A DNA stretch of 64,000 nt from an uncultured Ignavibacteria bacterium (GCA_964592145.1 CAZQBX010000003.1:78137-142136); one strand, 5' to 3'; shown: positions 1,182-64,000, numbered from the stretch's first letter. A program made the numbers and translations. Notes: generated by a model not told the origin, from the letters alone.

Positions 1182-1793
1182 ATGAAGTTAGCAGCCGAAG
1201 ACAGACGCCACCAAATACTTGAGGAAGCCACGAAGCTCTTCTCGGTTGAAGGTTACGACAAGGTTACAACCAAGCGATTGGCAGCTGCCTGCGGCGTAAC
1301 CGAGCCGGCGCTTTATCGTTACTTTGCGTCAAAGGAACTGATTTACGACGCTGTGCTGGATTCACTCGAGAGCCGTTTGCAATGCGACGATATCTATCCG
1401 GAATTAGCTGTCGAGAACGATATTGAGCTGCTTTTGTCGCGTTTAGCTACGCAGTTGCTTGACTGCTCGCAGAAGCATCAGGAAGTTTACCGACTTCTGC
1501 TTTATTCCGCCCTGGGAGGTCATGTAAAGGCGAGAGCTGTCTATCAGTCGATTCGCGGCCGGCACGCCAAGTTTCTGCAAGCTCAACTCGATCGACTTCA
1601 GCAACAGGGTCTGATTTCGGATTCAAACACGGAAATAACTGCCCGCAGTTTCATGGGTATGATCTTTGACTGCTCGTTGGGATTGACACTTTGGAAGAAC
1701 TCGCAAGGGCGTGTTTACCGGTGCGAGGAGTTGGTCGCCAATAATGTACCGATCTTCGCTGCGGGTCTTTGTCGGGCACTTCCCCAAAAATGA
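1182..1793 (+). CDS. TetR/AcrR-family transcriptional regulator
   Basis: N-terminal TetR HTH signature (ILEEATKLFSVEGYDKVTTKRLAAACGVTEPALYRYFASKE); 203 aa; RBS GGAGGAG upstream. Confidence 0.8.
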   Translation: MKLAAEDRRHQILEEATKLFSVEGYDKVTTKRLAAACGVTEPALYRYFASKELIYDAVLDSLESRLQCDDIYPELAVENDIELLLSRLATQLLDCSQKHQEVYRLLLYSALGGHVKARAVYQSIRGRHAKFLQAQLDRLQQQGLISDSNTEITARSFMGMIFDCSLGLTLWKNSQGRVYRCEELVANNVPIFAAGLCRALPQK

Positions 1794-1810
1794 AATCTAC
1801 TAATGAGGAT

Positions 1811-4441: not shown

Positions 4442-4509
4442 TTCTGGTTTTGGAGTAATCGCACATTAGTTCGAATTTGTTTGGTTTTAGATATAACGGA
4501 GAGATCATC

Positions 4510-37062: not shown

Positions 37063-40000
37063 TTGATGAAAGCAAGCACATCCGGAAAATGCCTTGGAAT
37101 CCCCTGGCTAATTGTATTGGCGATCATGACTTTAGTTGGATTAGTCGCCAATCCAGGATTCTCCGCGGATACGGGAGAAGAGCAGACCAAAGTTGACTCC
37201 CTTGAATTTGACAGTCGATTTGCGCTGTATCGATACCTGCAGCGCGGATTCGAAGAGTACTTCGACAAAGGTGATGTGAGCCGTTTAGCGGATTTGGAGC
37301 TTGCTGCCCGATATGTAAGTGAAACGTTTGGCGATGATTTCTATCTTCGGCAATGCGACAAGTTCAAGAACTGGCGGGAAAACTACCTCACAAAGCGTAG
37401 GCAACTGAAGGTCGAATATTCGCTGAATCAGCAAGGGCTGAATCAAGTAGACGTTCCTGCAGACACCTATTGCGATCAGATGATGAAATTGGCCGATGCG
37501 TTCCTTGAACTTGGAGACTCGGCCTCGGCAGTTAACTGTCTGCAAGTAGCCGGCGCAATGGGAGCGGGAAGAACCAGTTCGGATAACATAAGGGGATTGT
37601 TATCGAAATCGCTGGCCATCAGCCGAGCGATTGGCGACCTCGATGGGCTGTCGCGAAGTTATAATCTTACCGGAAGATTCCACGAGCAACGTGCCGAGTT
37701 CATAAAGGCGGGCGCCTATTTCGATTCGGCGCGCGTCATCAAATTCGAGCTTGGCGATCTCGCCGGTAGTGCCGACGCCCTGAACAACATCGCCTCGGTC
37801 TACCTCTCAATTGGCGACAAGGCAAATTCGTTGCGGTTTGCCGAAGAAGCACTGCAACAGAGGCGCGAACTTGGCGATTCAACGCAAGTTCTGCAATCGC
37901 TGTTGATGATAATCCCGGCCTTTGCCCGCGATGTTCCGGATTCGACTGCCCAACAATGGCTCAATGAGGCAGATCGACTTTCGCGCCTGCAATCGGAACC
38001 ACAACCGATGGAGCGACTTGCCTACAGCCGAGGAGTAATAGCCGAGTTGGGCGGCGAACTTGATTCGGCACTTAGTCAGTATTCGCAAGCCCTCGCCATT
38101 GCCACCGGTTCGAAAAATCACCGTCTAGCGCTCGCCATACTTCAGAACCTTGCCGCTCTCGAGTCGTCGATGGGACGTTTTTCGGAGTCTGTAGCTCATT
38201 ACGTTGCGGCACAGGAGCTTGCGACAAACTCCCGCAATAGTGCGGCGCTGGCGACTATCTACCACAATCTTGGCTCTTTGCACCAACGACTGGGTGATCT
38301 CGAGTTGGCGAGCGACTACTACCGCCGTGCTTTGGAAATCCGTCGCCAATTGGATATGAGAATTCAATCTGCAGAGACTTTAGGCAATTTGGCAGAGCTG
38401 TATTTGACGACCGGTGACCCTGCAACAGCGGAGGTGTATATCCGTCAGGCGATACAAGTCGCGCAACTTGCCGGCGATCGACGACGTCTCGCCTCAGCGC
38501 TCACACGATTGGCGCACCTCAGGCAATTAAATAAGGACTACGTCGGAGCAATGGCAGAGCTTGACAGTGCAGAGGCGGTTGAATCGGAATCACAAACTCC
38601 ACAGCGCCGGATCGATTATCTTTGCCTGCGGGCAGAGTTTTCACGCCAGGCACAAGAACTGGCACAGGCTGACAGATATCTCTCGGACGCTTACCGAGTC
38701 CTCGACTCATGTGCAACCTATACCAATCGCCAAAGGGTTGATATCATCAGAGCCGAATTGGCTGCCGACCGTAAGCGCTGGCGGGAGGCATACACCAGTT
38801 TGGCAACGGTCATTGCTCGCTCCGAACAGTTGCGCGGAAGTATTCCCAATCCGCAGCTGCGGACGAGTTTTCAGGGACGGTCGCGTTTTGTTTATGAGCA
38901 CATGGTCAAGACGCTGTTCAATCTTCGAAAGTCCGGCGAGTTTTCCGGAGGGGACGACTCTTTGCTGGCATATACTGAAAAGGCCAAATCGCGAGGTCTG
39001 CTGGACGCCGTGTATGGAATGGACGGACCGAACGATTCGCGGCAATGGGCGCATATGCGGTCGGAAGAGTCAAATCTGCTTCGAGAAGTTGAACGTGTTG
39101 AGCAATCGCTCGCAGACGACGGCGATGCCCAGTCGATCAAGCGCAAGATATCGTTGCTGGCGAATCTCGAAACGCGGTTGACCGACTTGCGGCTCAAGCA
39201 AGGCGCGGCGATTTCAACATCAGCCCGAATCTACAGTCCCCAACCGATTTCGATCCGGAAGATTCAGTCATCTCTACCAGACGAACGCACCGCGTTGATT
39301 TCATTTCTGCTTACACCTGAATCAAGTTACGTCATTCTCCTGGATCGTCGGCGGTTTACCGTTGAAGAGATTCCGGGTCGCAGCGAGATATCCGCCCGAG
39401 TTGCTGAATTTGCACGATTGATCCAGGTCTCGATCAAGGATGAGTCGCTTCTGGACAGCCTGGATGCAATTGCCGAATTGCTGGGCAAACAACTCCTCCC
39501 ACGGGAGTTGTTCGCGCAAGGCAACTACAATCATCTGCTGATTTGTGCAGATGGCATACTAAGCGTTCTTCCATTTGAAGCACTGCGTTTCAACGACAGA
39601 TACTTGATTGAAAGTTCGGCGATCGCTTCTGTGCCCTCGCTGTATCTGTACGGTTCAGGCAGCAGCAATTCGCAGCCACCTAAGGCGACGCGTCTACTTG
39701 CGCTCGCCGATCCACGCAACAACTCACAGTTGAGACAATTGCCGTTCAGCGCCAGAGAGGTTGACTGGATCAGCGAAGCCTTCGGCAAATCAAATTGCAC
39801 GATCCTGACTGCAACACGAGCCACCAAATCCGAATTGTTACGGCTGAATTTGTCTGATTACGGTATTGTCCATGTCGCGACGCATTCGACAATTAACTAC
39901 ACCGATCCACGACGATCCAAGATCTGGCTTTCGGCTGATTCTTCTCTGATTGATGGCGAAAGCATCCTCTCGTTGGCGGAAATCGGTGAACTCGAACTTT

Positions 40001-40302
40001 CGGCAGATCTGGTTGTCTTGTCATCCTGTGAATCCGGAGGCGGAAGTCTTGACATCGGTGAGGGCCTCGACGGCTTTGCCAAAGCATTCTTACAGGCCGG
40101 AGCGGGCAACTTGGTCGTTTCACTCTGGGAAGTCGAGGACTTCACCACAGCGGCATTCATGAAGACTTTTTATAATAACCTCAAGTCCGGATATGCTGAT
40201 GCTCTACGGACGGCAAAGTTGGAAATGATAACTTCGCCACGACTGCGGCACAGGCATCCCTACTACTGGTCACCATTCAAGCTGATTGTCGGTCGCAATT
40301 AG
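37063..40302 (+). CDS. Exported TPR-repeat protein with C-terminal CHAT (caspase-like) protease domain
   Basis: Signal peptide or TM (IPWLIVLAIMTLVGLVA). About 700 aa of TPR-like repeats (NLAALESSMGRFSESVAHYVAAQELA...). CHAT catalytic dyad context (IVHVATHS ... ADLVVLSSCESGGG) and CHAT C-terminal signature PYYWSPFKLIVG. Confidence 0.8.
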   Translation: MMKASTSGKCLGIPWLIVLAIMTLVGLVANPGFSADTGEEQTKVDSLEFDSRFALYRYLQRGFEEYFDKGDVSRLADLELAARYVSETFGDDFYLRQCDKFKNWRENYLTKRRQLKVEYSLNQQGLNQVDVPADTYCDQMMKLADAFLELGDSASAVNCLQVAGAMGAGRTSSDNIRGLLSKSLAISRAIGDLDGLSRSYNLTGRFHEQRAEFIKAGAYFDSARVIKFELGDLAGSADALNNIASVYLSIGDKANSLRFAEEALQQRRELGDSTQVLQSLLMIIPAFARDVPDSTAQQWLNEADRLSRLQSEPQPMERLAYSRGVIAELGGELDSALSQYSQALAIATGSKNHRLALAILQNLAALESSMGRFSESVAHYVAAQELATNSRNSAALATIYHNLGSLHQRLGDLELASDYYRRALEIRRQLDMRIQSAETLGNLAELYLTTGDPATAEVYIRQAIQVAQLAGDRRRLASALTRLAHLRQLNKDYVGAMAELDSAEAVESESQTPQRRIDYLCLRAEFSRQAQELAQADRYLSDAYRVLDSCATYTNRQRVDIIRAELAADRKRWREAYTSLATVIARSEQLRGSIPNPQLRTSFQGRSRFVYEHMVKTLFNLRKSGEFSGGDDSLLAYTEKAKSRGLLDAVYGMDGPNDSRQWAHMRSEESNLLREVERVEQSLADDGDAQSIKRKISLLANLETRLTDLRLKQGAAISTSARIYSPQPISIRKIQSSLPDERTALISFLLTPESSYVILLDRRRFTVEEIPGRSEISARVAEFARLIQVSIKDESLLDSLDAIAELLGKQLLPRELFAQGNYNHLLICADGILSVLPFEALRFNDRYLIESSAIASVPSLYLYGSGSSNSQPPKATRLLALADPRNNSQLRQLPFSAREVDWISEAFGKSNCTILTATRATKSELLRLNLSDYGIVHVATHSTINYTDPRRSKIWLSADSSLIDGESILSLAEIGELELSADLVVLSSCESGGGSLDIGEGLDGFAKAFLQAGAGNLVVSLWEVEDFTTAAFMKTFYNNLKSGYADALRTAKLEMITSPRLRHRHPYYWSPFKLIVGRN

Positions 40303-40365
40303 TGATAATGGGTTGAATCAAGACTTGCTGAACAAGTGATAGAAAGACGAAGCTTCCGGGAACGG

Positions 40366-41247
40366 CTATTCTTTCACCGAGACGTTGAAGTAAAACTCAT
40401 ACTCGGCCGGTACGATGCTGACGCCTTCGGGAAATTCTTCCTTGATCGATAGCGAGAAGCTTCCGCCTTCTTTAAGAGTATTGAGGGCATTCTGGTCGGT
40501 GACTTTGAGCTCACATTGATTGATGAATTCGGTCGGAAGGCACTCGAGTTGCTGGCCTTCGAGTTTAAGTGATTCGCCGCCACGGCGGATGAGATCGATA
40601 TTGTAATGATAATCGGGGAGTTCGACTCGATCGGTCGGGAATGCAAAAATCAGTTCGCGAGTGTTCTTCTGCAATGCGACCTGCATTTCCCGAACTTGTC
40701 CTTCATCCGCAATCGAGCGTTTTTCATTTTGCATTGAAAGTGAGACACGCACAATCAGCGAATCTTCGCCGGGTCGATTGAGCATAACCACGGCGCTGAG
40801 AACCAGAATCAAGGCAAGTGCAACGGGCGCGACAAATCTGGAGATTGCGGTGGAGCCGACCAGTTGCGAGAGCCAGCCTGGTTTCGCCACCGGCGCGACT
40901 GAAGCTGATTCTTCGGGGATATGCTTAACTGCGAGGCGGAGAAGTTCGACGTCCGCAGCACAAGATTGGCACTGCTGCAGATGACCGGCGATTTCCGAAT
41001 ATTCCGAGGAGAGTTTATTGATTCGTTCAAGTGCGAACCTGTCGAGAGTTTCAACGGCGGGATGCCCCGAAAAGTCGAATTTCGGCATCGAGCGGCGGAT
41101 CGAGTAGATTCCCTGCCAGAACGCGAATTCGGCCTGCAAACTTTCGGAGCTGGCAATTTCGGCTTCAATGCGATCTGCTTCTTCCCTACTCAATTTGCCC
41201 TGCACAAGCAGCGGGATCATTTCGATTATCTCGTTGTTGACACTCAT
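40366..41247 (-). CDS. Membrane-spanning anti-sigma factor candidate (ZAS-like HxxxCxxC) with periplasmic C-terminal domain
   Basis: HLQQCQSCAADVELL motif; single TM (VAPVALALILVLSAVVML); immediately downstream of and co-oriented with an ECF sigma gene. Confidence 0.55.
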   Translation of the reverse strand: MSVNNEIIEMIPLLVQGKLSREEADRIEAEIASSESLQAEFAFWQGIYSIRRSMPKFDFSGHPAVETLDRFALERINKLSSEYSEIAGHLQQCQSCAADVELLRLAVKHIPEESASVAPVAKPGWLSQLVGSTAISRFVAPVALALILVLSAVVMLNRPGEDSLIVRVSLSMQNEKRSIADEGQVREMQVALQKNTRELIFAFPTDRVELPDYHYNIDLIRRGGESLKLEGQQLECLPTEFINQCELKVTDQNALNTLKEGGSFSLSIKEEFPEGVSIVPAEYEFYFNVSVKE

Positions 41248-50246: not shown

Positions 50247-52280
50247 TCAAGTCCCGGCGCAAGTCGCGCAAGGCGCCGGTCCGCCGGCAAAAATATAATT
50301 GATGAGAAAGACAGCATCAGAAATGTTGACCGATCCAGTGCAATTCGCGTCGCCGCTCAATATCGGCGCCGGCGCGGTTCCGCCGCCAAAGATGTAATTG
50401 ATAATGCGAACAGCATCGGAAATGGTGATCAAGTTTGTGGCATCGGCGTCCCCGGCGAGGTACTGAACTCCGCCATCCTTGCGGAAGAAATTGACACCGC
50501 CGTCTTCTTCGCCAAGGATTAGATCCAGATCACCATCGGAGTCGAGGTCGCCGCGTGACATGGCGGTTCGCCAACCGACATCGCTTCCGGGTATCAGGTC
50601 GGGTTGTATCAGCAGAGTAAGCGAGTCGGGGAAGGTGTTTCCCATCGCAATATTCCGGTACCACGTGAGCCCGAGGAGGCGGTTGCCAACGATTAGGTCG
50701 ATCTTGCCATCCTGGTCCCAGTCGGCGGCACTGGGTATGGTAAAATCACGAGCCGACTTCTTTATCAGAAATTTCGTGACCAAGGTCAGAGCGGGGTTTC
50801 CCACCGAGCCGGTGTTTTCGTACAGCTGGATGTTGGCGGAACCATTGAAGTCCCATTCACCGACGACTAAATCCTTCAGCCCATCATTGTCAAGATCGAC
50901 CGGTACCGGCACAGCAAGCTGGTCGGTCTTAATTCCAGCGAGCTGACTGGTAACGACAACAAAGGCCGGGGTGCATTCATCGCCATCGTTGCGCCAATGT
51001 TGAATGAATCCATTTTCGTTTCCGATCAGTAAATCCAGGTCACCATCGGAGTCCCAGTCGACAAATGCCGGCATCGCCGAAAGTCCGACGTCGATGCCGC
51101 CGAAATTGGCAGTCACGCGAGTCAGCACGGGTTGCTGGCGGCTGCCGGTGTTTTCAAAAAACGCGATCATACCATCGCCACCACCCACAAACAGGTCCAA
51201 ATCGCCATCGCCGTTGATATCCGCCAGTGCGGGAAAGGCACTTCGACCGACGTCGATATTGTCAATCAGGTTCTGTTGTTCCAATACGAAGTTGGCGCTG
51301 GCGGCAGAGCCGGTATTCCGAAGAAATTTCAAATTGTCGATGAACTCGCCATTTGCCGGCGCCAAAATCATATCGAGGTCGCCATCGTTGTCGACATCGG
51401 CCAGCGGAGCATGATTAAACCCGATCGTTGAATAGACCGGAGAGAGATAGCTGTCGGTTTGATAAGTGAAATCCGAGAGCGCCGGGGTGCCGAGGTTCTC
51501 GAACAAGTAGAGGTTCGTATTGAACAGGTCGCCCCAGATTAAGTCATGATCGTTATCGTTATCAATATCGGCGAAGTTGATTGCGCTGAACCCGTGTTGC
51601 GGTTGCGTCGGTTTGTTGAGACCACCGCCTCCTCCTGGGAAGGCAAGGATGCTGTCATAGAACGTCGACTGAAGAGAAAACTGCGGTACAGCTGCGGAAC
51701 CGATATTACGGTAGAAGACCAGCTGCCCGCCGGGGTCGCCGACAAAGAAATCGAGGTCGTTGTCATTATCAATGTCAACCAGCGCAGGGGTGTTATTGAC
51801 ACCGGTGGTAATGCTATCCAGATCTGAATCGACTGCAACAAAGTCAAGATTGCTGCCGACGCTTTGATTGCGATACAGAACCACACCATTGCTGTTGTTG
51901 TCGCACAGCAGATCAAGGTCACCGTCGTCGTCGATGTCGGCCAATCGATGCCAAGTGCCAATATTGATGCCGGCAAAGCGATCGGTCACTGGTGTCCAGC
52001 TTGGAACTGTCGGAGAACCGGTATTGCGTAAGTAACAGAGTTTTCCGCTGGCTTCGCCAATGAACAAGTCGATGAGGAGGTCTTGATCGAAGTCTACCAA
52101 TGATGGTTTAGGATTATTGATGCCGCCCCAGAAGGGGTACAGAAGAGTGTCGCCACCAAGGATGACGGGAAAAGGATTAGTCTCTTGGGAGTATTGGGCG
52201 GAGAGATTTCCAAAAGTCACCAGCAACCAGGTGATAGTCAGAAGACTGCAATACTGGAGTCGGGTAATAGTCGTCCTCAT
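50247..52280 (-). CDS. Secreted FG-GAP/VCBS (integrin-alpha-like) repeat protein with C-terminal dockerin-like double Ca-binding module
   Basis: At least 7 DxDxDGxxDxxxG loops (DIDNDNDLDFFVGD, DVDNDGDLDMILA, DINGDGDLDLFVGG, DWDSDGDLDLLIGN...). C-terminal GDADATNLITISDAVRIINYIFGG + GDANCTGSVNISDAVFLINYIFAGG resembles dockerin type I. Start set at MRTTI, which gives a signal peptide. Confidence 0.7.
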   Translation of the reverse strand: MRTTITRLQYCSLLTITWLLVTFGNLSAQYSQETNPFPVILGGDTLLYPFWGGINNPKPSLVDFDQDLLIDLFIGEASGKLCYLRNTGSPTVPSWTPVTDRFAGINIGTWHRLADIDDDGDLDLLCDNNSNGVVLYRNQSVGSNLDFVAVDSDLDSITTGVNNTPALVDIDNDNDLDFFVGDPGGQLVFYRNIGSAAVPQFSLQSTFYDSILAFPGGGGGLNKPTQPQHGFSAINFADIDNDNDHDLIWGDLFNTNLYLFENLGTPALSDFTYQTDSYLSPVYSTIGFNHAPLADVDNDGDLDMILAPANGEFIDNLKFLRNTGSAASANFVLEQQNLIDNIDVGRSAFPALADINGDGDLDLFVGGGDGMIAFFENTGSRQQPVLTRVTANFGGIDVGLSAMPAFVDWDSDGDLDLLIGNENGFIQHWRNDGDECTPAFVVVTSQLAGIKTDQLAVPVPVDLDNDGLKDLVVGEWDFNGSANIQLYENTGSVGNPALTLVTKFLIKKSARDFTIPSAADWDQDGKIDLIVGNRLLGLTWYRNIAMGNTFPDSLTLLIQPDLIPGSDVGWRTAMSRGDLDSDGDLDLILGEEDGGVNFFRKDGGVQYLAGDADATNLITISDAVRIINYIFGGGTAPAPILSGDANCTGSVNISDAVFLINYIFAGGPAPCATCAGT

Positions 52281-52397
52281 TCTGGTTAGTGTTTCGGCAC
52301 AAGCGGTCGAGTAAGCAAGTAAGTTATACCAATATAGTCGATCTTGGTGATTTGTCAATCGGGGGAGTTGCACGTCAAGCGAACTCCCCCAGGACTA

Positions 52398-55118: not shown

Positions 55119-56321
55119 CTAAACCAGATGCTTGCCGCCGTCGAAGTAACCCTTGACGGCGCTGCGATTGGCCTGCAACCACGCGGGATCCCACTTTACA
55201 ATACCGAACGCTTCCGACATGAACTCTTCGCGCGCCCCGCGGATCTTATCATCATCTTTAGCGGCTTCAGCCTTGGTCCTTTCATCCCGCGAATATGGAG
55301 TGACGGTAGCCTGACCTTTTGATGCTGTCTTGAATTCCTTCATCATCTTCGTTTCCTTGATGTCGGTGAAAGCCTTGTTCGTCTTCTGCGCAGCATCCAT
55401 TTTCGATTCGAGATCCTTGACGTCAGCTTTGAATTTCGTCTTATCCGTTGCCGAGAGGCCGGCTTCGGTCGTGGTGAAGCTGAATGAACCGTCGGCATTT
55501 GTGGTCTCCGAATAATTGTTCGGGAACGTACTGCGCAGATGCGCGCGCTGGGCATCGATATCACGCTGCGCCTGTTGATCTTTCTGTTCAAGTTGCCGCA
55601 CTTCGAGAAAGGCGAGTACGTGGGCGGCCTCGTGAAAGATGACGTGGCTGCAGTTCGGCAGCAGTTTTGCAGGATCGGGACCGAGACACAAAAGTGCGCC
55701 ATTGACCATGCCCTCGTTGAAAACCTCGACGGTATGGGCCGACTGATCGTAATGCCCGCCGACATCATTGCCGGTTCCAGTGGTGCCGCGGGACACTTTC
55801 AGGTCTTTCATCCGCTCGAGTTCTTTATCAGTCAGAACATTAAGAGACATTTTGACGGCGGACGCCTCGTCTCCGCTGAAGCCGTTGACAGAGATGTTGA
55901 AGCCGTTGAGGCGCTTGTCGATTGCCGTGATGGCGGCACTGTCGGGAAGGCTGTTCGTCGGTGCGCCGACCTTGATCAGGTCGATTTCATTATTCGCCTT
56001 GAGAACGCCGGTACAGATGAAGGTGGTCAGAGTAGGACTGCCTTTACCACCTGTAGCGGGAGTCTCGATGATAATGTGGAAGGTTCGGCGCAGGTTGACC
56101 GGTTTGTCAGTCGGTTTCGAGAAGCAGAATTTTGCCAGAAGCTTCTCTTTGTCAGTGAAGCTTGTTCCGATGAAGTTGACTTTGGCGCCGAAGGTCACAT
56201 CGCTGGGTAAGGAACTTTCCTCTACCTTGCCGGAACTGATCACCGAGGTAGCGACCATCGGAGGATCGACCGTGACTTTTGTGTTTGATCCTGATTTGCC
56301 TTGTCCGTCTTCGCCAGCCAT
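55119..56321 (-). CDS. Hypothetical protein with HExxH zinc-metallopeptidase motif (HEAAH); possibly a DUF4157-like toxin-associated peptidase domain
   Basis: NCSHVIFHEAAHVLAF preceded by HTVEVFNEGMVNG; Lys/Glu-rich C-terminal half; last gene of the PAAR-led co-directional cluster. Confidence 0.4.
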   Translation of the reverse strand: MAGEDGQGKSGSNTKVTVDPPMVATSVISSGKVEESSLPSDVTFGAKVNFIGTSFTDKEKLLAKFCFSKPTDKPVNLRRTFHIIIETPATGGKGSPTLTTFICTGVLKANNEIDLIKVGAPTNSLPDSAAITAIDKRLNGFNISVNGFSGDEASAVKMSLNVLTDKELERMKDLKVSRGTTGTGNDVGGHYDQSAHTVEVFNEGMVNGALLCLGPDPAKLLPNCSHVIFHEAAHVLAFLEVRQLEQKDQQAQRDIDAQRAHLRSTFPNNYSETTNADGSFSFTTTEAGLSATDKTKFKADVKDLESKMDAAQKTNKAFTDIKETKMMKEFKTASKGQATVTPYSRDERTKAEAAKDDDKIRGAREEFMSEAFGIVKWDPAWLQANRSAVKGYFDGGKHLV

Positions 56322-56347
56322 CTATCTTCCTTGAGATTGGTGAGTCG

Positions 56348-57220
56348 TCATTCTTCCAGAATCGTTAGCTTGTATGGCCCGGGCGGCATGTCGTCGAAGT
56401 GCGCACGCCCTTCATCGTCAAGTGTTCCGTTTTCGCTGGCGCCATTGGGAAGATCGATCTTGAATCTGCGGTTGCTTAGCGGTGTTCCGTCGTTAAAAGT
56501 CACGAGCAGGTCAATATGATCTTTGAATTTGAGGAGCCCTGACTCTTGTTTTTTGCCGATTTCTGTTTCGCCGATCTTTACCGTGAAGAAGTATTCTGGG
56601 AAACGATAAGCACCGCCGAACTTGGACATATCTTCATCGGTCGCAATATCGTCGGTGTCTTCGCTGTATTGGTATTCCCAGAGGATGTCGATCTTTTCGG
56701 ATTTGACGCGGACCGGAATCTCGACGATTCTGTCGTGAGCGCCATCGGCATCAAATTCGTAGATCGTGATCAGGGCGTCGGTATCATCGATAGCATTGCG
56801 AATATCTGCTTTGATGTTCACGAAGTCGCCGCGACGGGCCACGTCGCTGCCCCACTGCAAACCGGAGACTTTGATTTCCGGCATTACCATGATCTTGAAT
56901 GAGTCGCCTTTGAGTCCGTGCTTCGGCAAGCTTGCTTCGAAGTAGATCATCTCGTCGGTTTTGGCAGAAGCCGGAATGTTCACTGTCCCGCGGAACTTAT
57001 TTCTAATGATCAGTCCTTCTGACTTGCCGAGCGTTTTGCCCTGGTCTGACTTGGCGGTAATCTTCACAGGCGCGCCGTCGCCGACGCAAAGCGTGCCGAC
57101 CTCAAGACCAGCCTGCATACCGGCATAAGCGATCTGCTGTGTCCATTCGGCATATATAAATGCTGACTCGAGCTTGATCTGGTGTTTTTGATCCGATGAC
57201 TTTGAGAATTTCAAATCCAT
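56348..57220 (-). CDS. Hypothetical protein (beta-rich, acidic)
   Basis: No motif recognised; co-transcribed position inside the PAAR cluster. Confidence 0.4.
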   Translation of the reverse strand: MDLKFSKSSDQKHQIKLESAFIYAEWTQQIAYAGMQAGLEVGTLCVGDGAPVKITAKSDQGKTLGKSEGLIIRNKFRGTVNIPASAKTDEMIYFEASLPKHGLKGDSFKIMVMPEIKVSGLQWGSDVARRGDFVNIKADIRNAIDDTDALITIYEFDADGAHDRIVEIPVRVKSEKIDILWEYQYSEDTDDIATDEDMSKFGGAYRFPEYFFTVKIGETEIGKKQESGLLKFKDHIDLLVTFNDGTPLSNRRFKIDLPNGASENGTLDDEGRAHFDDMPPGPYKLTILEE

Positions 57221-57233
57221 ATTTCGTGCCCGG

Positions 57234-57662
57234 CTACTTGCCGATCAACAGCGATTCCAGCGCCTGATTGAATGCCGCCTGACTTATCGCTCGTGAGGCG
57301 TGGTCGGAACGGCACTGTAAAGTGTAACCAACGCCATTTTCGATGAAATACGCCAGCCGGCCGTAATTGGCGGCGGCACCGGAGCCACTACGATAAGCAA
57401 ACTCGTAGACTTCACGGCCCGAGCTTAGCTTGCGTGCCTGCTCGAGGAGGACTTCAGAGTCGGTTGAAGAATCGATGATTTGCGCCGATCGCAGTCTCGC
57501 GTATTCCTCGAGCGAAGCAGCATTAGCGGCGGACGGATCAATCGACACTGTAATAATGCTTCTCCGGCCGGCGCGCTCTGGACCGAGGAAACTGAAGATG
57601 GTGCCGTCCTCCCATCCTTCGGGGAGAAGTATCGTCAGCTGATGATTCTTAGTTCTTGCCAT
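57234..57662 (-). CDS. DUF1795-like (Eag-type T6SS effector chaperone-like) protein
   Basis: 142 aa, no signal peptide; N-terminal LTILLPEGWEDGTIFSF...RRSIITVSID pattern resembles the EagT6/DUF1795 signature (LxxPxGWxDxS...SxxIxRD). Confidence 0.4.
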   Translation of the reverse strand: MARTKNHQLTILLPEGWEDGTIFSFLGPERAGRRSIITVSIDPSAANAASLEEYARLRSAQIIDSSTDSEVLLEQARKLSSGREVYEFAYRSGSGAAANYGRLAYFIENGVGYTLQCRSDHASRAISQAAFNQALESLLIGK

Positions 57663-57674
57663 ATTTCTCTATCG

Positions 57675-58901
57675 TTACTCAATGCAGTAAAGAGTGTGTT
57701 TACCGGAGACCAGAATTTTGCCGTTACCAGAGACTGCAGTCGGTGTCGCATAGACATCGCCCTCTTGCGGGCACTTGAATTGCCTGAGAATCTTGCCCGA
57801 GGAAGCAAAGGTTGTGATTGCCGCAGAGTCAGTGACAATTATCTCGCCGGCAGTAGTCGTGTTGAGCCAGCTTCTGCCGCTATATACATGAGGAACGCGC
57901 CACGATTCTGTACCATCAACAAGGCAAGACAGAAAGCCGGAATCCAGGAAGTAGATTTCACCCTTTGCACCACAGGCAGGTTGGTGATGGGTCATCGCTT
58001 GCAGCAAGTTGAATTCCCAATTCACCTGCCCTTCCGGCGAATAAGCTCTTATGAGCGGTCGAGTAACCTCGCCGTCAAGTTTATCGCCGAATAGTACGAG
58101 CTCGTTGTTGGTATTGATCATCGCAGCTCGAACGGTACTCAATTCTGTCGGGAAGTTGCCCGAGTCCTTTCCGTCAGTAATATCATAGACTTGCACGCTA
58201 TCCTGCCCGACCAAGAACAGCTTCTTGTCATCGCTCGTAACCAGTGCCTGAGTAACGACCCCGACACGTTGGTCGATCCAATCCCAAGCGGACTTGCCAA
58301 ACGACATCCGATAGACGGAGGATCCTGCAGGAGTGTTTCTTACGGGCAATCCGCTGAAGTGCTGAATCACTGCCAAGAATTCGTTTCCCAGCGGATAGAG
58401 TAGCCGCAGACGACTGCGATCGTCGAGCAAGGGCACGGCGTGGCCGTCGATGATTAATTTTCCGTCGTATTTTCTGCACGACAATTGCCGGTTTGGCGTG
58501 ATCCAACAATACGAATCGATGCCGAACGCGGCTAGTTCGCCATCGGCGAGCAGCTCCTGCCTGATGAACGTGCCATCGATGTCATAGAGCAGCAGGTCCT
58601 CCTGCAAGACTACTCCGACGAGGTTACCGTCCAAAAGCACTCTTTGCGGTGCCGGCTGCAACAGGGAGTCGACCTTCGAGTAGTGGCGCGCCCAAGCCAA
58701 TTTGCCGCGTGTCGTAGGCGACATAGGAATCAGCCCGTTTGCCTGCAGATTGCCGGACATGATCGTCTGAACAGTTCCACGACTGTCAATGAGTCTTGTC
58801 TCAAGATCAGTTGTCATGCTCGCCTTGGAACAGCCGTTGATGACTAGCCAAAGGAGACAGACTGCAATTCCGGGAAGTCTGTGCATTCTCATAAATCTCA
58901 C
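57675..58901 (-). CDS. Lipoprotein with probable beta-propeller repeats (immunity or accessory candidate)
   Basis: Lipobox LWLVINGCS; repeated GxxxYxxD / KLFLVGQDSVQVYD-like blades. Confidence 0.4.
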   Translation of the reverse strand: MRFMRMHRLPGIAVCLLWLVINGCSKASMTTDLETRLIDSRGTVQTIMSGNLQANGLIPMSPTTRGKLAWARHYSKVDSLLQPAPQRVLLDGNLVGVVLQEDLLLYDIDGTFIRQELLADGELAAFGIDSYCWITPNRQLSCRKYDGKLIIDGHAVPLLDDRSRLRLLYPLGNEFLAVIQHFSGLPVRNTPAGSSVYRMSFGKSAWDWIDQRVGVVTQALVTSDDKKLFLVGQDSVQVYDITDGKDSGNFPTELSTVRAAMINTNNELVLFGDKLDGEVTRPLIRAYSPEGQVNWEFNLLQAMTHHQPACGAKGEIYFLDSGFLSCLVDGTESWRVPHVYSGRSWLNTTTAGEIIVTDSAAITTFASSGKILRQFKCPQEGDVYATPTAVSGNGKILVSGKHTLYCIE

Positions 58902-58919
58902 AATTCTTCATCATGCCTC

Positions 58920-61900
58920 TCAAAAGCTATCTTTGAAATCGAAATTTGTGTTGCCGAGTTCTGATCTCATGAAATCGCGCAGAAATGTCAGATCAGTAAT
59001 CTTGAGACGTTTATCGGCCGGCATCAGGGCGATGGTGGCTTCTGTGGCGCCATCATCCTTGCCAAGGACATAGTTTGCGACCCAGACTTTGGACGTGTCG
59101 TTGCCGACTTCCAAAGACTTACCCGAGCGCTTGGATATTTTGGCATCATCGCGCAGCACGACCCGGATGTCGTAGTGCGTGACGGAAGATGCGATATTTA
59201 TGCGACCGAGCGCGATGATCGAAAACAACGTTCGCTGGAATGCCCGATCACTCTTGCCGGCATCCCCAGTGCGAAGCTTGTCATCCGGTAACAACATAAA
59301 CCCTGTACCGTTCAGGCCGCCAATCTCTTTTACCAAATCGGTAACCCAGGCCTCCCGAAGCGCCTTCGTCCATTTCTTGGACTTGTTGGTCGGATGGTCG
59401 ACGAATTCAAAGCCAAGTTTGAAGTATGCCGAGAGAATTCCGTCAAATGGTTTCGAGGTTCGCACTCCCTTGACCCTGATGAGATGGGCCGTTTCGTCAT
59501 GACCGATCTTATACAAGTTCAGATCGACAGCTCCGGTTGCAAGCGTAAATGGTTCCTTTGTCTTGAACGCGCGATAGATGTCACGGAAATCATCAATGAT
59601 GTGATAGGACAACTCCTTAACTTTCGAGATTCCCGCGTCGGTGAATTTAAAGAAGAACCGAACACGAAACTGCCGTCCGTTCAACACCGGCTTGAGTTTG
59701 TTGTCGTCCTTGGCAGCATCGTTAAGCCAGTTGACGAAATTCCACCAATAGCGCATTCGCGGAAGCGACATTGAATCGTTCATCATTGCGCGGCGCTCTC
59801 CACCGAGAGGCGCTCCGGGAATCGGTTGGCGAAACGCCGTCTGCGGCGACTTGAAATCTTCGCGGCGTTCGATGTATTCGTCGGGTTTACCGCAAGCGTG
59901 TCCGATTTCGTGTCCGACTACCAGATTGCTGGCTTCGACTGAATCGAGCGGATCGGTTTCTTTGCCGCCGCTGTCGGCGCGGGTCGCAAAGTCGCTGCGG
60001 TGCATTTGTGAATCGGTGAAGCCCATGAATGCAACATCGGGATTATTACTGACACTGACAATGCACTTATGTTGTCCGCCGCGGTTAGTCAATTTCGGTT
60101 CGAAGTAAAATACGGGCGAGACTTCCAGTGCCGGAGGATTGTCGGCGTCGAGCGGCTCTATCGTGTAGTCTTTGCGTTCCCAGTGAGTTTTGGCATTGCG
60201 AAATCCCTCCAAGGCGAACTTGCGAATTTCCGCCGCTGTCACCGCTGCTTTGTCGGTCAACTTGGGATCGGGATCAAAATGGGCTTTGAACCGGGCGCTC
60301 CAATAGATTAACAGAAAATGTCGCTCGAGATCGCCGAGCATCGTCCCGCGACGAATGTAGTGCGCTTCAAAATTCCCGGTGTTGAAATCCGCATACGGGA
60401 GCGATTTGGGATCACCCTTCTTGTTTGGTTGGAGAATGATTTCGGAAAAACGGACGTCGCGGTCGTTTAATACCGCGGCTCGTGCACCGATCACATCTTT
60501 TGCGCCCTGATTGCCGCCGGCCGGCAGTTTTGTGCGCTTGTCCCAGATGTCGAAGAAACCTGTGGAAACCTTGCGCGATGGCGCGCCCGGCGAGCTAACT
60601 GTCGCTTCGCCGGTCGCGAAAATCAACAGCCGCGGCTCTTGCGGTGTTTTCATAATCAGGTTTTCCGTGAGTGCTGTTGCCGTGTGATGCAAGAGTTGTG
60701 AATCCGGATCGAAGAGCAGAAGACGATTGTCGACGATGTGGAACAGTGCATAGCGTGAATCCTTGGACAGGGCGATGTCTTTATTACCGGTATCGCGATC
60801 ACCGATGTTCTGCCCGCCATTGGCATCAACCAGGACAATATCGTCAAGAGAGAATGTCAGTGGAAACTGCGAATCGGTAACAGTCGGCCCGAATGGTTTG
60901 ATCTTCTTGCGCTCCTTCATGACGGTTTCATATCGGTCGCCACTGTCCATGCTGCCGTCAAAACGCGTCCAGTAGTTCTTCGATGACCAGCGTTCAGGCA
61001 AGTCATAGAATTGCAAGCGTTCCTTGAGCGGGAGTTTTTCGATCTCGACGCGAGTCATGAAGATGATAGTCCCGCCGGATTTGTTCATTTTGATCCACGA
61101 ATCAGAAGTCTCGAATTCAAAGTGGATTTTCTTGCGCCGGTCGTCGTCGCGAACCTTGACGACATAGTTGCCACCGCTAAAAGATGTGCGAGCCTCGATG
61201 CTCTTGCCACTTTCGTCGAAGGCTTTGATGGTAAGGCCTTCCGGTACCGGGGTGATTGCCTGGGCAATCCGATTGAAGAAGACAAATTTCAGATGATAGC
61301 TGATAGCGAATAGATCAAAGGCATCGACATAGATGCGGTCAAAAAATGTCGTGGCAAAAATCGGAACGACTTCACTGTTCAGTTTCTTGGTGAAGCCGGT
61401 AGTAATGTTGATGTCGGGCAAATCACCGCCGTTGAAGAACAGGATCTCGACGCGACGATTCATTTGCGATTTGAAGTTGTCCTTCTGGCTGGCCTGAATC
61501 GGAAATGACTCGCCACAAGGAAGGATCTTTCGTTCGGTATTCGCGAAGCGCAGCTTGTCGCGTTTGTTGATTTTCGGCGTTCTCTGCGGATTGGGACTCG
61601 AGCAGGTTAAGCGCTTTTCGGGTCCTTTGGGGCCGCTCGACGAGCCGCGTGACAGAAATTCATCGATCTCCTTGTCATATAGATCAAACACCGCAATCCA
61701 GGCGACGATCGGCCATTTGTGTTGTGAGTCATTCTTGACTTTCGCCGCTTGCGAGTCGTCAATGCCGTTCGCCTTGAAGAAGTTGACAGTAGCTTCATGA
61801 GTCTTTGCGGTGTAACTATTGTTGATTTCGCCCGGATCGCAGTTGAACTCGGGACGCTTCTTGTTGTAGTGCGCCATGATCTGCTGATAGTCCTCGATGC

Positions 61901-62354
61901 GGTGCCGCTTGTGAGACAAGTCCGCCCACTCTTCCCGTCGTTGCTCCAGCAGGAACAGGACATTATTGCAGCGTTGCTCCGAGAGAATGAAGTTCATCTC
62001 CAGACCGCCGGAGGTATCGGTGTGGCCGGTAATCAGAACTCCGAGCGTGTGATGCTCTTCGAGGACAATGTGCGTGACGGCAATCGTCTGAAGGCCGCTG
62101 AGTTGGTTCTGCAGTTCCTGGCGATCCTTTTCTTCTTGCGTCATGTCGGGATCGGCAGCGGCATCCTGTGAAGAAGCACCCTTGGGCCCGGAGGGCATCA
62201 CCACGCAGCTGTCGAGATGGAAAAGAACATCTTCCATCTCGACAACCTTGACGAGAGGTCGGCGCAACATTAAATCGGCAGGACTCCCGGTGAATATTTG
62301 GCGGCGCTGCTTAAGTTCGCCGAAGCTCAATTGCTGTGGTTCGTTGATTGCCAT
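58920..62354 (-). CDS. Large (1144 aa) protein with N-terminal OmpA/MotB-like peptidoglycan-binding motif and a HExxH zinc-metallopeptidase motif; putative effector/toxin
   Basis: VLITGHTDTSGGLEMNFILSEQRCNNVLFLL matches the OmpA_C signature (GHTD...N..LSE.R...V); LVVGHEIGHACGKPDEY at about residue 830; no signal peptide; starts 12 nt after the PAAR gene stop. Confidence 0.5.
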   Translation of the reverse strand: MAINEPQQLSFGELKQRRQIFTGSPADLMLRRPLVKVVEMEDVLFHLDSCVVMPSGPKGASSQDAAADPDMTQEEKDRQELQNQLSGLQTIAVTHIVLEEHHTLGVLITGHTDTSGGLEMNFILSEQRCNNVLFLLEQRREEWADLSHKRHRIEDYQQIMAHYNKKRPEFNCDPGEINNSYTAKTHEATVNFFKANGIDDSQAAKVKNDSQHKWPIVAWIAVFDLYDKEIDEFLSRGSSSGPKGPEKRLTCSSPNPQRTPKINKRDKLRFANTERKILPCGESFPIQASQKDNFKSQMNRRVEILFFNGGDLPDINITTGFTKKLNSEVVPIFATTFFDRIYVDAFDLFAISYHLKFVFFNRIAQAITPVPEGLTIKAFDESGKSIEARTSFSGGNYVVKVRDDDRRKKIHFEFETSDSWIKMNKSGGTIIFMTRVEIEKLPLKERLQFYDLPERWSSKNYWTRFDGSMDSGDRYETVMKERKKIKPFGPTVTDSQFPLTFSLDDIVLVDANGGQNIGDRDTGNKDIALSKDSRYALFHIVDNRLLLFDPDSQLLHHTATALTENLIMKTPQEPRLLIFATGEATVSSPGAPSRKVSTGFFDIWDKRTKLPAGGNQGAKDVIGARAAVLNDRDVRFSEIILQPNKKGDPKSLPYADFNTGNFEAHYIRRGTMLGDLERHFLLIYWSARFKAHFDPDPKLTDKAAVTAAEIRKFALEGFRNAKTHWERKDYTIEPLDADNPPALEVSPVFYFEPKLTNRGGQHKCIVSVSNNPDVAFMGFTDSQMHRSDFATRADSGGKETDPLDSVEASNLVVGHEIGHACGKPDEYIERREDFKSPQTAFRQPIPGAPLGGERRAMMNDSMSLPRMRYWWNFVNWLNDAAKDDNKLKPVLNGRQFRVRFFFKFTDAGISKVKELSYHIIDDFRDIYRAFKTKEPFTLATGAVDLNLYKIGHDETAHLIRVKGVRTSKPFDGILSAYFKLGFEFVDHPTNKSKKWTKALREAWVTDLVKEIGGLNGTGFMLLPDDKLRTGDAGKSDRAFQRTLFSIIALGRINIASSVTHYDIRVVLRDDAKISKRSGKSLEVGNDTSKVWVANYVLGKDDGATEATIALMPADKRLKITDLTFLRDFMRSELGNTNFDFKDSF

Positions 62355-62365
62355 GATTGCAGCTC

Positions 62366-63490
62366 TTACTTACCCTGCTCGGGGTCTTCGATCTTGATAA
62401 ACACCACTTCGTGACGCCCGGCGATGATATCGAGAACTTCGGCACACCCATCATCGCCCAACTTGCCTTGGCGAATTTCGCCGTTGCAGAGATGCAGGCG
62501 GAACTCGGAATTCGCAAGCGAGATAGCCTCTTCGGTAGTGAGCTTGATTCGAACGTCATCGGTCACAACGAGAGGACCGGAACGGGCGGTATATTCGTGA
62601 ATATCAATTGTGAAAAAGTAGTACGGGCAGGTGAACCCGCCCTTCTTGGCAACTTCGCGCTGTTCTTCGATGGCGTGGTCGTTGCATTCGGCAATCCAGG
62701 ATTCTGCAACCTCGTTGTTATCGATCGTTATCTCCCAGCGTCGAATCAGGTGCGGTGCGAAACTGCGATCGCGAACAAGTAATTCCATTGTCGCTTTGGT
62801 CCCCGGAGCAAGTCCGGCAGTTTGAACCTGCATTTGTACCTCTTCGCCGATCTTCACTCTCGGTGACGACCAACCTATCTTCGTAATACCAAAGAGCTCA
62901 ATCTCTGTCGTCCCGGCGCTTTCAAGAGAAGCGTGGACTGCACTGCTTGTCTTCCCAGTGATTGTCTGATTGTCCGGAGTGACGGCCTTGTATCCGAGTT
63001 CGCTAATCGGATATCCGGCTTTATCGACGAATGCGGCATGGACGAAGTGGCCTTCAAATTCACTGGTTTGTGGCGATTGCGACCCCGGCTCGTGTTCACC
63101 GACCTCGGTCTCCTCCGCTGAACTGTCGGCACCTTCGGCTTGCGCGCTGCCGGTCGATCCAGACCCACCACCCGCACCGGCGCCGCCGGCACCAATCAAA
63201 ACGGTGGGACATCCGGGCGGGGCTATCGTGTCGGGGGGGCCGGCACAAGTGAGCATATCACCGACACAAGCAGCCGGCTGACCGCCGATGAGCACTGTCG
63301 GCACGCCCGGCGGCATGATTGGCCCGCCGACGTGCGGCGGGGGAGGAGTCCCGGGATTGACCATCGGGCAGACGTGCATATCACCGACTCGGGCGGCCGG
63401 CATACTGCCAATGAGAACCATTGGAAATCCGGCGACGATGCTGCCGCCGTGAACGGTCAAGTCTCCCAATCGAGCTGCCGGTTTTCCCAT
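62366..63490 (-). CDS. PAAR-domain protein with glycine-rich linker and about 240-aa C-terminal extension of unknown function
   Basis: Three PAAR repeats (PAARLGDLTVHGG, PAARVGDMHVCP, PAACVGDMLTCAGP), each followed by VLIGG/VLIGA; GAGGAGAGGGSGSTGS linker; C-terminal domain without recognisable motif. Confidence 0.8.
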   Translation of the reverse strand: MGKPAARLGDLTVHGGSIVAGFPMVLIGSMPAARVGDMHVCPMVNPGTPPPPHVGGPIMPPGVPTVLIGGQPAACVGDMLTCAGPPDTIAPPGCPTVLIGAGGAGAGGGSGSTGSAQAEGADSSAEETEVGEHEPGSQSPQTSEFEGHFVHAAFVDKAGYPISELGYKAVTPDNQTITGKTSSAVHASLESAGTTEIELFGITKIGWSSPRVKIGEEVQMQVQTAGLAPGTKATMELLVRDRSFAPHLIRRWEITIDNNEVAESWIAECNDHAIEEQREVAKKGGFTCPYYFFTIDIHEYTARSGPLVVTDDVRIKLTTEEAISLANSEFRLHLCNGEIRQGKLGDDGCAEVLDIIAGRHEVVFIKIEDPEQGK

Positions 63491-63719
63491 CGATCTCCAG
63501 TACTTTCGACGAATTGCAAAAATGGACTGTTTCAGTATACGCTATTCAAACCCTGGTGTCAACCAAATGGGTTCCACTGCAATAGAACACTGGTCGAGTC
63601 AGCAAGTGCTGGGTTCAAAACGCTTGCTCAGGCGAGCCCTGCGGTGAAGACTCAAAGGCAGCGCGGAACACCAAGTTGGTTGTAATGCAGTTGATAGAAG
63701 CCCTGAACCGACAGATTTG

Positions 63720-63754
63720 GCCAATAGTCCGGAAATCAACTCCGGACTATTGGC
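63720..63754. repeat. Perfect 14-bp inverted repeat GCCAATAGTCCGGA-aatcaac-TCCGGACTATTGGC (hairpin or protein-binding palindrome)
   Basis: Seen directly; lies 18 nt downstream of the stop of the truncated minus-strand gene and 230 nt upstream of the PAAR gene. Confidence 0.5.
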
Positions 63755-63772
63755 TTGTGAGATGGTGATTTG

Positions 63773-64000
63773 TTAGCGGCCGGAGTATCGGTAGGGATAA
63801 TAACGCGGTATCCACATGGCGCCGCGAATCAGTTCAGCAAGTTTTTCGTCAGAAGCCGCCATACCGAGTCCATCTTCACGTGCTTGCTTGGCCACCGCGA
63901 AGGCGACAGTGAATGACTCGTTACGTATGTCGGTCAATGGGGGCAGAAGGCATCCTTTGGATCGCAGGTCTGCGCCTACCATATCGGAAATTGCGCAGGT
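63773..64000 (-). CDS. 3' end of a minus-strand gene whose N-terminus lies beyond the window; function unknown
   Basis: The reading frame stays open to the window edge upstream of M63982; C-terminal sequence ...WIPRYYPYRYSGR; no family recognised. Confidence 0.35.
   Translation of the reverse strand, partial: TCAISDMVGADLRSKGCLLPPLTDIRNESFTVAFAVAKQAREDGLGMAASDEKLAELIRGAMWIPRYYPYRYSGR

Follow-up and report, generated by a model that had tools for sequence, protein, structure and literature searches.

A probable auxiliary type VI secretion spike-cargo cassette led by a PAAR protein in an uncultured Ignavibacteria bacterium

The window analysed here, a 64-kb stretch of DNA from an uncultured Ignavibacteria bacterium (GCA_964592145.1 CAZQBX010000003.1:78137-142136; 64,000 nucleotides in full), contains six co-directional minus-strand open reading frames (ORFs), g1 to g6, which occupy positions 55119-63490 and are separated by gaps of 11, 18, 12, 13 and 26 nt (Table 1). 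We consider it likely that this region is one operon and that it constitutes an auxiliary ("orphan") spike-cargo effector cassette of a type VI secretion system (T6SS). This reading draws on the linkage of homologous modules to T6SS clusters in other genomes, and on a peptidoglycan-binding enzyme (g2) that never carries an export signal and always has an exported partner encoded next to it. It draws further on the presence of several relocating copies per genome together with a promoter-like site of the operon's own, and on the recurrence of the g2 N-terminus and of g5, as modules, in combination with other toxin domains. An initial annotation had listed six tightly spaced minus-strand genes with gaps of 9 to 27 nt and had called them a polymorphic-toxin island, serving either a T6SS or an extracellular contractile injection system (eCIS). 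The gene layout holds, with gaps of 11 to 26 nt, and the interpretation as a whole is partly supported.

Table 1. Genes of the cassette and the associated promoter-like site, with ratios of nonsynonymous to synonymous substitution rates (dN/dS) computed against the two closest relatives, L004 and L006 (dS ~0.6-1.2)
Feature	Position in window	Strand	Product length	Assignment	dN/dS
g1	62366-63490	-	374 aa	PAAR spike-tip protein	0.04-0.05
g2	58920-62354	-	1144 aa	candidate effector, OmpA-like and metzincin-like	0.03
g3	57675-58901	-	408 aa	exported PQQ/BamB-like β-propeller, probably a lipoprotein	0.14-0.15
g4	57234-57662	-	142 aa	candidate cytoplasmic DcrB/DUF1795 (Eag-like) chaperone/adaptor	0.11-0.15
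g5	56348-57220	-	290 aa	candidate acidic three-β-sandwich carrier/adaptor	0.04-0.05
g6	55119-56321	-	400 aa	ATLF/M34-like gluzincin, variable cargo position	0.03
Promoter-like site	63534-63562	-		TTGACA, 17-nt spacer, TATACT; sigma-70-type	
Flanking control genes					0.02-0.10

The way in which such a cassette might operate can be outlined as follows. The g1 protein would cap a VgrG spike via its PAAR domain and display its β-sandwich C-terminal domain. The g2 protein, made in the cytoplasm without an export signal, would be carried on the spike, presumably via the C-terminal domain of g1, and would be fired into the periplasm of a neighbouring cell. There its OmpA/PG_binding_1-like module would tether it to peptidoglycan, while the metzincin-like domain would cleave a cell-wall-associated substrate, either a peptidoglycan-linked protein or a peptide stem. 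The exported β-propeller lipoprotein g3 would act as a periplasmic safeguard for the producing cell and its kin, g4 would serve as an Eag/DUF1795-type cytoplasmic chaperone for one cargo protein, and g5 would act as a second spike-associated carrier or adaptor for the product of the next, polymorphic position, which in this genome would be filled by the lethal-factor/Zmp1-like zinc protease g6. In this outline we infer secretion, physical interactions between the products, toxicity and immunity, as well as the presence of a T6SS in this genome.

A five-gene module beside type VI secretion clusters

Scanning one genome per species with g2 gave 79 loci. These span about ten labelled phyla, by the unverified labels in the record titles of the metagenome-assembled genomes (MAGs): Zixibacteria, Ignavibacteria, Fibrobacterota/Chitinispirillaceae, Krumholzibacteriota, Aminicenantes, Gemmatimonadota, Caldithrix, Desulfobacterales, Eisenbacteria and GN15. 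The loci were annotated by iterated profiles, and 35 loci are fully flanked, with at least 8 kb on both sides. Among these 35, g1 is present in 34, g3 in 35, g4 in 34 and g5 in 25. T6SS core genes (TssB/C, Hcp, TssE/F/G or VgrG) lie within 10 kb of the module at 21 of the 35 loci; the remainder comprises seven loci with PpkA-type kinases and seven with neither core nor kinase. The module adopts one of three settings: it directly follows TssE-TssF-TssG-ClpV-VgrG (Ignavibacteria type), directly precedes ClpV-TssB-TssC-TssD-VgrG-TssE-F-G-K, with the position after g5 in between (Zixibacteria type), or stands as an orphan. The TssC and TssD proteins of the linked clusters belong to the Pfam families of the T6SS subtype iii (T6SSiii), PF17541 and PF17642.

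Throughout these loci the order g1-g2-g3-(g4)-g5 is fixed, and the sequences are 30-47% identical across phyla. In such comparisons g1-g5 are a conserved five-gene module, and polymorphism is confined to the sixth position. Clustering the 97 ORFs found in the slot after g5 gave 70 clusters, of which 52 have a single member, and three loci have nothing in the slot. Among the occupants are HExxH proteins, proteins with LysM or OmpA+PG_binding_1 that lack signal peptides, a Zn-dependent phospholipase C joined to a g2-type OmpA region, and a protein with four transmembrane (TM)-like segments; in addition, one g5 homolog is fused to an AHH nuclease. Variable toxins behind a conserved part, the pattern of polymorphic-toxin systems, are found for the post-g5 slot and the fusions only, not for g1-g5. 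The label of a polymorphic-toxin island is thereby apt for the variable sixth position, but not for the other five genes, which make up a conserved module.

Two features of the linked clusters deserve a separate description. The complete Zixibacteria cluster (L002:1-8829, L083:16708-21422) is flanked by TM-bearing or exported unknowns of 341, 224, 312, 307 and 734 aa and by a TM-anchored PpkA-like kinase; the unknowns are candidate parts of an undescribed envelope complex. ClpV of the Zixibacteria type is encoded by two adjacent ORFs (~484 + ~367 aa) in many independent MAGs (L002:18551-21100; same position in L025, L027, L028, L031, L040, L046, L050, L052, L055, L057, L062 and L070), and ClpV of the Ignavibacteria type by a single ORF of ~872 aa. 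The ClpV stretch of L002 had been left uncalled by the gene caller.

The spike tip, its candidate cargo and their partners

The PAAR assignment of g1 is confirmed by a match to Pfam PAAR_motif (PF05488) in three stretches, with 77.8 bits against a cut-off of 27 (E 7.5e-22). The match to the NCBIfam equivalog T6SS_PAAR_dom (27.2 bits) falls below the 124-bit cut-off, as expected for an extended, divergent PAAR protein. The PAAR domain (residues ~1-100) is followed by a low-complexity linker rich in Gly, Ser and Ala and by a conserved C-terminal β-sandwich region (~200-366). Over its full length, g1 is 38-42% identical to the PAAR proteins of distant, T6SS-embedded modules, and its residues 202-366 are homologous (paralogous) to residues 118-289 of g5. 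The C-terminal domain that had been described as unknown is indeed present, but its conservation in distant loci and its kinship with g5 give it a different character: judged from the alignments, it is a conserved β-sandwich and not a variable toxin.

No signal peptide and no TM segment is found in g2, and a hydrophobic N-terminus occurs in none of the 74 members of its family. An OmpA-like peptidoglycan-binding domain (~35-310) with a PG_binding_1-like helical insert is followed by a β-rich middle region and a C-terminal metzincin-like region. In a 38-sequence alignment, the OmpA-type peptidoglycan-binding residues G87, H111, D113, G116, N121, R128 and R300-R301-V302 are invariant, as are the HExxHxxGxxDxY motif (815-827) and Met858, which together resemble a metzincin-type signature. 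Profile match, fold and the conserved peptidoglycan-contacting Asp and Arg residues agree on an OmpA-like peptidoglycan-binding domain. The AlphaFold2 model of g2, a confident one (pLDDT 84.3, pTM 0.72), gave consistent results when compared by Foldseek with the PDB, but no match at E <= 0.001. A g2 profile run against PDB sequences recovered solved relatives for the OmpA segment only, and the β-rich middle region had no informative PDB match. At least 233 homologs of g2 were found at 29-95% identity, nearly all of them without a protein name. The N-terminal peptidoglycan-binding region also occurs joined to other C-termini, including the Zn-dependent phospholipase C. A role in anti-phage defence was considered and rejected, as PADLOC matched only the generic MotB/OmpA segment.

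The gene next to g2 encodes a protein with a hydrophobic N-terminus followed by a cysteine (LVINGC), in keeping with its earlier designation as a lipoprotein. A hydrophobic N-terminus is present in 54 of 68 members of the g3 family, the profile of which retrieves PQQ-type propellers (3hxj, 3e-38) and BamB lipoproteins (~5e-9). In all 35 fully flanked loci g3 lies directly downstream of g2. The pairing of an effector that lacks a Sec signal with an adjacent exported partner is here a sequence prediction, and it makes g3 a candidate periplasmic immunity protein for g2. Being predicted to be exported and always adjacent to g2, g3 fits the immunity role that had been proposed for it. The annotated GTG start of g3 (window 58886-58901) probably needs correction. 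In the close relative L004 the third codon of this extension is an in-frame stop, so initiation at the internal Met4 or Met6 (58892 or 58886; MRMHRLPG...) is more probable.

For g4, the family profile finds EagT6 (6xrf, E 4.7e-4), PA0094 (E ~5e-4) and SciW (0.02). Its homolog in L030 reaches the DcrB threshold with 27.4 bits, and precomputed DcrB matches exist in L002 and L003. These matches are in line with the earlier DUF1795/Eag-like call, and we regard g4 as a candidate Eag/DUF1795-like cytoplasmic chaperone or adaptor. The protein in the variable slot of L002 (782 aa) carries four TM-like segments and may represent an Eag client at that locus.

The acidic nature noted previously for g5 is borne out by its composition (50 D+E against 36 K+R). 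Its structure is all β and comprises three sandwich-like units, the last two of which are common to the C-terminal domain of g1. The fold resembles the N-terminal domain of BtaeB from the VgrG cargo complex of Bacteroidota. We regard g5 as a candidate spike-binding carrier or adaptor at the head of the variable cargo slot. A lone g5 homolog (299 aa) followed by unknown ORFs of 446 and 293 aa (L084:10001-13223) looks like a minimal carrier-plus-cargo island; it resides in MAG GCA_049663865.1, which also holds a window-type cassette (L086).

The g6 family is a rare one: a search of 1.84 billion proteins gave 29 representatives. The HEAAH motif lies at residues 230-234 and a third-ligand motif, EEFMSEAF, at 365-372. 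Invariant in the family are Y191, H196, H230, E231, Y343, E366 and E370, and H234 is conserved. An EEFFAExFA-type segment of the family aligns with the helix that carries the third zinc ligand in anthrax lethal factor (E 5e-4) and in Clostridioides difficile Zmp1/PPEP-1 (E 3e-3). Pfam ATLF (PF07737) matches 11 of 25 family members, with a best E of 2.3e-7, and does not match g6 itself, which has no Pfam match of any kind. Given these alignments, g6 would be an ATLF/M34-like gluzincin, with HEAAH as part of an ATLF-like domain. In having HExxH together with an E-E-F-F-A-E-x-F third-ligand segment, the g6 family resembles lethal factor and Zmp1 (PPEP-1; MEROPS M34). It differs from them in that only ~35-65 of its residues align to the solved structures, residues 1-190 of g6 being unrelated, and in its context of T6SS cargo rather than that of a Sec-secreted toxin. 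At one locus with 49% g2 identity (L007:12932-14164, minus strand), a g6 homolog lies after g5 on the opposite strand, and g4 was not detected.

While the HEAAH motif stands at residue 230 as annotated, the suggestion that g6 is DUF4157-like does not: PF13699 (DUF4157, now eCIS_core) gave no match in g6 at E <= 1 or E <= 0.1. This domain occurs only in the N-termini of four longer relatives (E down to 5e-30), in which the g6-type domain is C-terminal. In this respect the family recalls the PF13699-led polymorphic toxins, from which g6 differs in lacking PF13699, and the arrangement in these four distant relatives suggests that the g6 domain serves as exchangeable toxin cargo. The same relatives are one ground for assigning the cassette to an eCIS or another non-T6SS delivery route, and the lack of a T6SS near any copy in the window lineage is another. 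We judge such a route very improbable, as g6 itself is without the domain, ~85 loci showed no eCIS gene for sheath, tube or baseplate, and every apparatus beside homologous modules is a T6SS with ClpV, TssB/C, TssK, Hcp and VgrG. Hence, the T6SS half of the earlier assignment is retained and the eCIS half is dropped.

Known systems and competing explanations

Orphan clusters of PAAR or VgrG, effector, immunity protein and chaperone are known for T6SS, for example the Eag (DUF1795)-dependent Tse6/EagT6 of Pseudomonas aeruginosa (EagT6 structure 6xrf). The cassette resembles clusters of this type in being led by a PAAR protein, in having a DUF1795-family protein, in the succession of a cargo without Sec signal and an exported partner, and in its location away from a core cluster. 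In contrast to Tse6/EagT6, PAAR and large enzyme are separate genes, the cassette offers an Eag chaperone no TM segment to shield, the C-terminal domain of the PAAR protein is a conserved β-sandwich instead of a toxin, and g1-g5 show conservation across phyla instead of variation between strains.

A second point of reference are the periplasm-acting cell-wall effectors of T6SS with their periplasmic immunity proteins, the Tse1/Tsi1, Tae/Tai and Tge/Tgi families. As in these pairs, an enzyme that has no export signal yet shows cell-wall-targeting features is followed by a gene for an exported protein. Unlike Tse1, Tae and Tge, g2 has a catalytic domain that is metzincin-like, of the zinc peptidase kind, and not an NlpC/P60 amidase or a muramidase, and its ~1,100-aa OmpA + PG_binding_1 architecture has no solved relative outside those two modules.

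Spike cargo complexes of T6SSiii have been described in Bacteroidota, namely BtpeA-BtaeB-BtapC on VgrG (PDB 9jg8) and Bte3-Ate3-Pte3 (PMC13402684), and the Bacteroides fragilis effectors Bfe5/Bfe7 or Bte3 are required for T6SS function (PMC13402684). The module shares with them the T6SSiii-type TssC and TssD of the linked clusters and presumably also the combination of a cargo of several proteins, an effector that acts in the periplasm, dedicated adaptors and a tip of the PAAR type. A requirement of effectors for T6SS function, as in Bacteroidota, would explain the core-like conservation of g1-g5. There is, however, no sequence homology between the two sets of cargo proteins. The adaptor is Eag-like here and an open β-barrel in Ate3/BtapC, the tip is a canonical PAAR here and DUF4280 there, the candidate effector is OmpA-like and metzincin-like here and the effector a C39-like amidase there, and the carriers are Zixibacteria, Ignavibacteria and others, not Bacteroidota.

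This comparison bears on an alternative that we regard as unlikely, in which g1-g5 are mainly structural or accessory T6SS parts. They would form an obligatory complex for the spike and its transit through the cell wall, with g2 anchoring to peptidoglycan or opening it locally and g3 as its lipoprotein partner in the outer membrane, which would leave g6 as the sole true toxin. The near-universal presence and fixed order of the module within these clusters and its sequence conservation across phyla would be natural for such parts, whereas the absence of g5 from 10 of 35 loci would not, and the multiple and orphan copies and the relocation of the cassette are the behaviour of an effector module. 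Abolition of T6SS function in B. fragilis upon loss of Bfe5/Bfe7 or Bte3 (PMC13402684) gives the alternative a precedent. It also gains from the lack of Pfam-recognisable TssJLM and TssN-R in the linked clusters, a gap which could nonetheless be filled by the other TM-bearing unknowns of the complete Zixibacteria cluster.

The topology of the proteins is harder to reconcile with that role. Signal peptides and TM segments are absent from g2, g4 and g5 in more than 55 homologs each, and these proteins therefore cannot build a trans-envelope complex by the Sec route. In Bacteroidota, the T6SSiii membrane complex TssN/O/P/Q/R consists of four inner-membrane TM proteins and one lipoprotein (PMC10781749). 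A membrane-complex role of the module is thus unlikely, because four of its five proteins lack a membrane or export signal, the known complex relies on TM proteins, and the complete Zixibacteria cluster has other TM-bearing unknowns at its flanks. Specifically, g2 and g3 as counterparts of the Bacteroidota TssN-R proteins were ruled out on topology, since g1, g2, g4 and g5 have no TM segment and only g3 is lipoprotein-like; no Pfam matches to TssN/O/R were found among the neighbours of the module.

A softer form of the structural alternative is compatible with an effector cassette: g2 may combine the role of an effector with that of a component the spike cannot do without, which is reported for some Bacteroides effectors. 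Carried further, a widespread T6SSiii-like lineage that lies outside Bacteroidota and has no recognisable TssJLM and TssN-R could depend on g1-g5 as its quasi-core spike complex, with g2 needed for firing or wall passage, g5 as a universal toxin dock, and orphan copies that reprogramme the spike of a core encoded elsewhere. We hold this further proposal to be doubtful.

The auxiliary-cassette reading is additionally informed by the relatives of the window. In the closest ones, L004 and L006, the same six genes are found at 83-84% nucleotide identity, with 94-95% protein identity for g1, g2 and g6. Several copies per genome occur in the MAG pairs L004+L030, L006+L032 and L005+L044, and the MAGs of L004 and L006 hold a second, divergent orphan copy comprising g1-g2-g3-g4 together with a kinase and three small ORFs. 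With g6 included, the six-gene cassette recurs in two other settings: at 76% g2 identity it is flanked by a cytochrome gene and an RND efflux operon, and at 50% g2 identity it stands back to back with another PAAR-led operon. As the same six genes recur in unrelated chromosomal contexts, the cassette relocates as a unit. The divergent PAAR-led operon that adjoins this window-type cassette (L090:250-8398) encodes, in order, a PAAR protein (367 aa), a PG_binding_1 protein (542 aa), a HEAT protein (259 aa), the products of two small ORFs and a LysM/metallophosphatase protein of 1062 aa.

All six genes have low dN/dS values (Table 1), and the cassette is therefore maintained by purifying selection. 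Within it, the rates of evolution of g3 and g4 are the highest, at three to five times that of g2, the dN/dS of g3 being ~5x that of g2. These values are relevant to the view that the cassette is a stranded remnant, or a set of ordinary cell-envelope housekeeping genes, with no role in secretion. Its location among housekeeping genes with no apparatus in view is what such a view would predict. Six intact ORFs under strong purifying selection at dS ~0.6-1.2 are not expected of a remnant, the PAAR domain and the T6SS linkage elsewhere favour a role in secretion, and a peptidoglycan-binding enzyme without an export signal would make no sense as a housekeeping wall enzyme. This view is accordingly the one to which we attach hardly any probability.

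Several observations nevertheless count against an auxiliary T6SS cassette. Homologs of T6SS core genes, PpkA-type kinases and FHA proteins are absent from every frame of the window, which was screened with Pfam on all large ORFs and with iterated T6SS profiles on stop-to-stop segments of at least 50 aa. The absence of a secretion core from the window, as first annotated, extends beyond it: L006 is collinear with the window up to position 64000 and continues with a malic enzyme, a DcaP-like outer-membrane protein, a periplasmic binding protein and a methyl-accepting chemotaxis protein (MCP), and its 8 kb past the equivalent of the window edge contain no T6SS genes. Likewise, no T6SS core lies within 8-10 kb of window-type or "class C" copies in the closest lineages, and among the top 120 matches of a TssC search there was no cluster with the contig fingerprint of the window species. 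At the level of single genes, the OmpA segment of the window g2 falls under the Pfam threshold, and g4 reaches only 21.4 bits (E 2.8e-4) against DcrB/DUF1795 (PF08786), below the cut-off of 27.2. No TM-like segment was found in g1, g2, g5 or g6, which leaves the Eag-like g4 without an obvious TM-bearing client in this cassette. The match of g5 to the BtaeB fold lies among many generic Ig-like matches, no immunity gene is adjacent to g6 at the locus, and the conservation of g1-g5, similar to that of core genes, is unusual for effectors.

Significance and surroundings of the cassette

Orphan T6SS effector cassettes are well known as a kind of system. New here are a conserved five-gene module that accompanies T6SSiii-type clusters in phyla other than Bacteroidota, the architecture of g2, the combination of a g5 carrier with a polymorphic slot, and the rare ATLF-like g6; no relevant description of the module, or of T6SS in Zixibacteria or Ignavibacteria, was found in open-access papers and bioRxiv. 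The biology of T6SS rests almost wholly on Proteobacteria and gut Bacteroidota, whereas the module spans about ten mostly uncultivated phyla. It adds several uncharacterised families, among them a ~1,100-aa putative peptidoglycan-tethered metzincin with its β-propeller partner, a three-β-sandwich candidate carrier and a rare lethal-factor-like protease. If the module were needed for firing, the recent notion that effectors help to build the spike would apply to further phyla as well. In practical terms, the gene after a g5 homolog is a place to look for new T6SS toxins in environmental genomes.

The promoter-like site ahead of g1 has 11 of 12 consensus matches and is located 44 nt upstream of the start codon, past the 3' end and hairpin of the malic-enzyme gene upstream of g1. 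As shuffled sequences contain no fewer such sites than the region does, it is to be read as a consensus match only. At the downstream edge, a convergent gene of the DUF1801 family begins 19 nt past the g6 stop codon. The G+C content is unremarkable, and the neighbours of the cassette are housekeeping genes: malic enzyme, DUF1801, DUF192 and dienelactone hydrolase. The upstream edge (window 63617-64000) is a synteny break: the malic enzyme is next to g1 in the window and in L006, but is missing from L004, of the same genus by identity, where a divergent DcaP-like gene takes its place.

Further features of the window lie at some distance from the cassette. On the plus strand, two neighbouring large proteins (1769-4441 and 4477-6489) combine multihaem cytochrome c (c7, c3, paired CXXCH, MtrC-like) with a cytochrome b561-type membrane domain; in another genome, a 651-aa protein resembling these multihaem cytochromes is encoded directly upstream of the cassette. 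An ORF of 1193 aa at 6575-10156 on the minus strand has no Pfam match at E <= 0.001. Positions 37063-41247 encode a 1079-aa protein with TPR and CHAT domains beside a convergent 293-aa protein with a weak zf-HC2 anti-sigma match. Lastly, a 708-aa protein at 50247-52373 on the minus strand carries eight FG-GAP repeats and a C-terminal dockerin-type domain, and is syntenic in L001.

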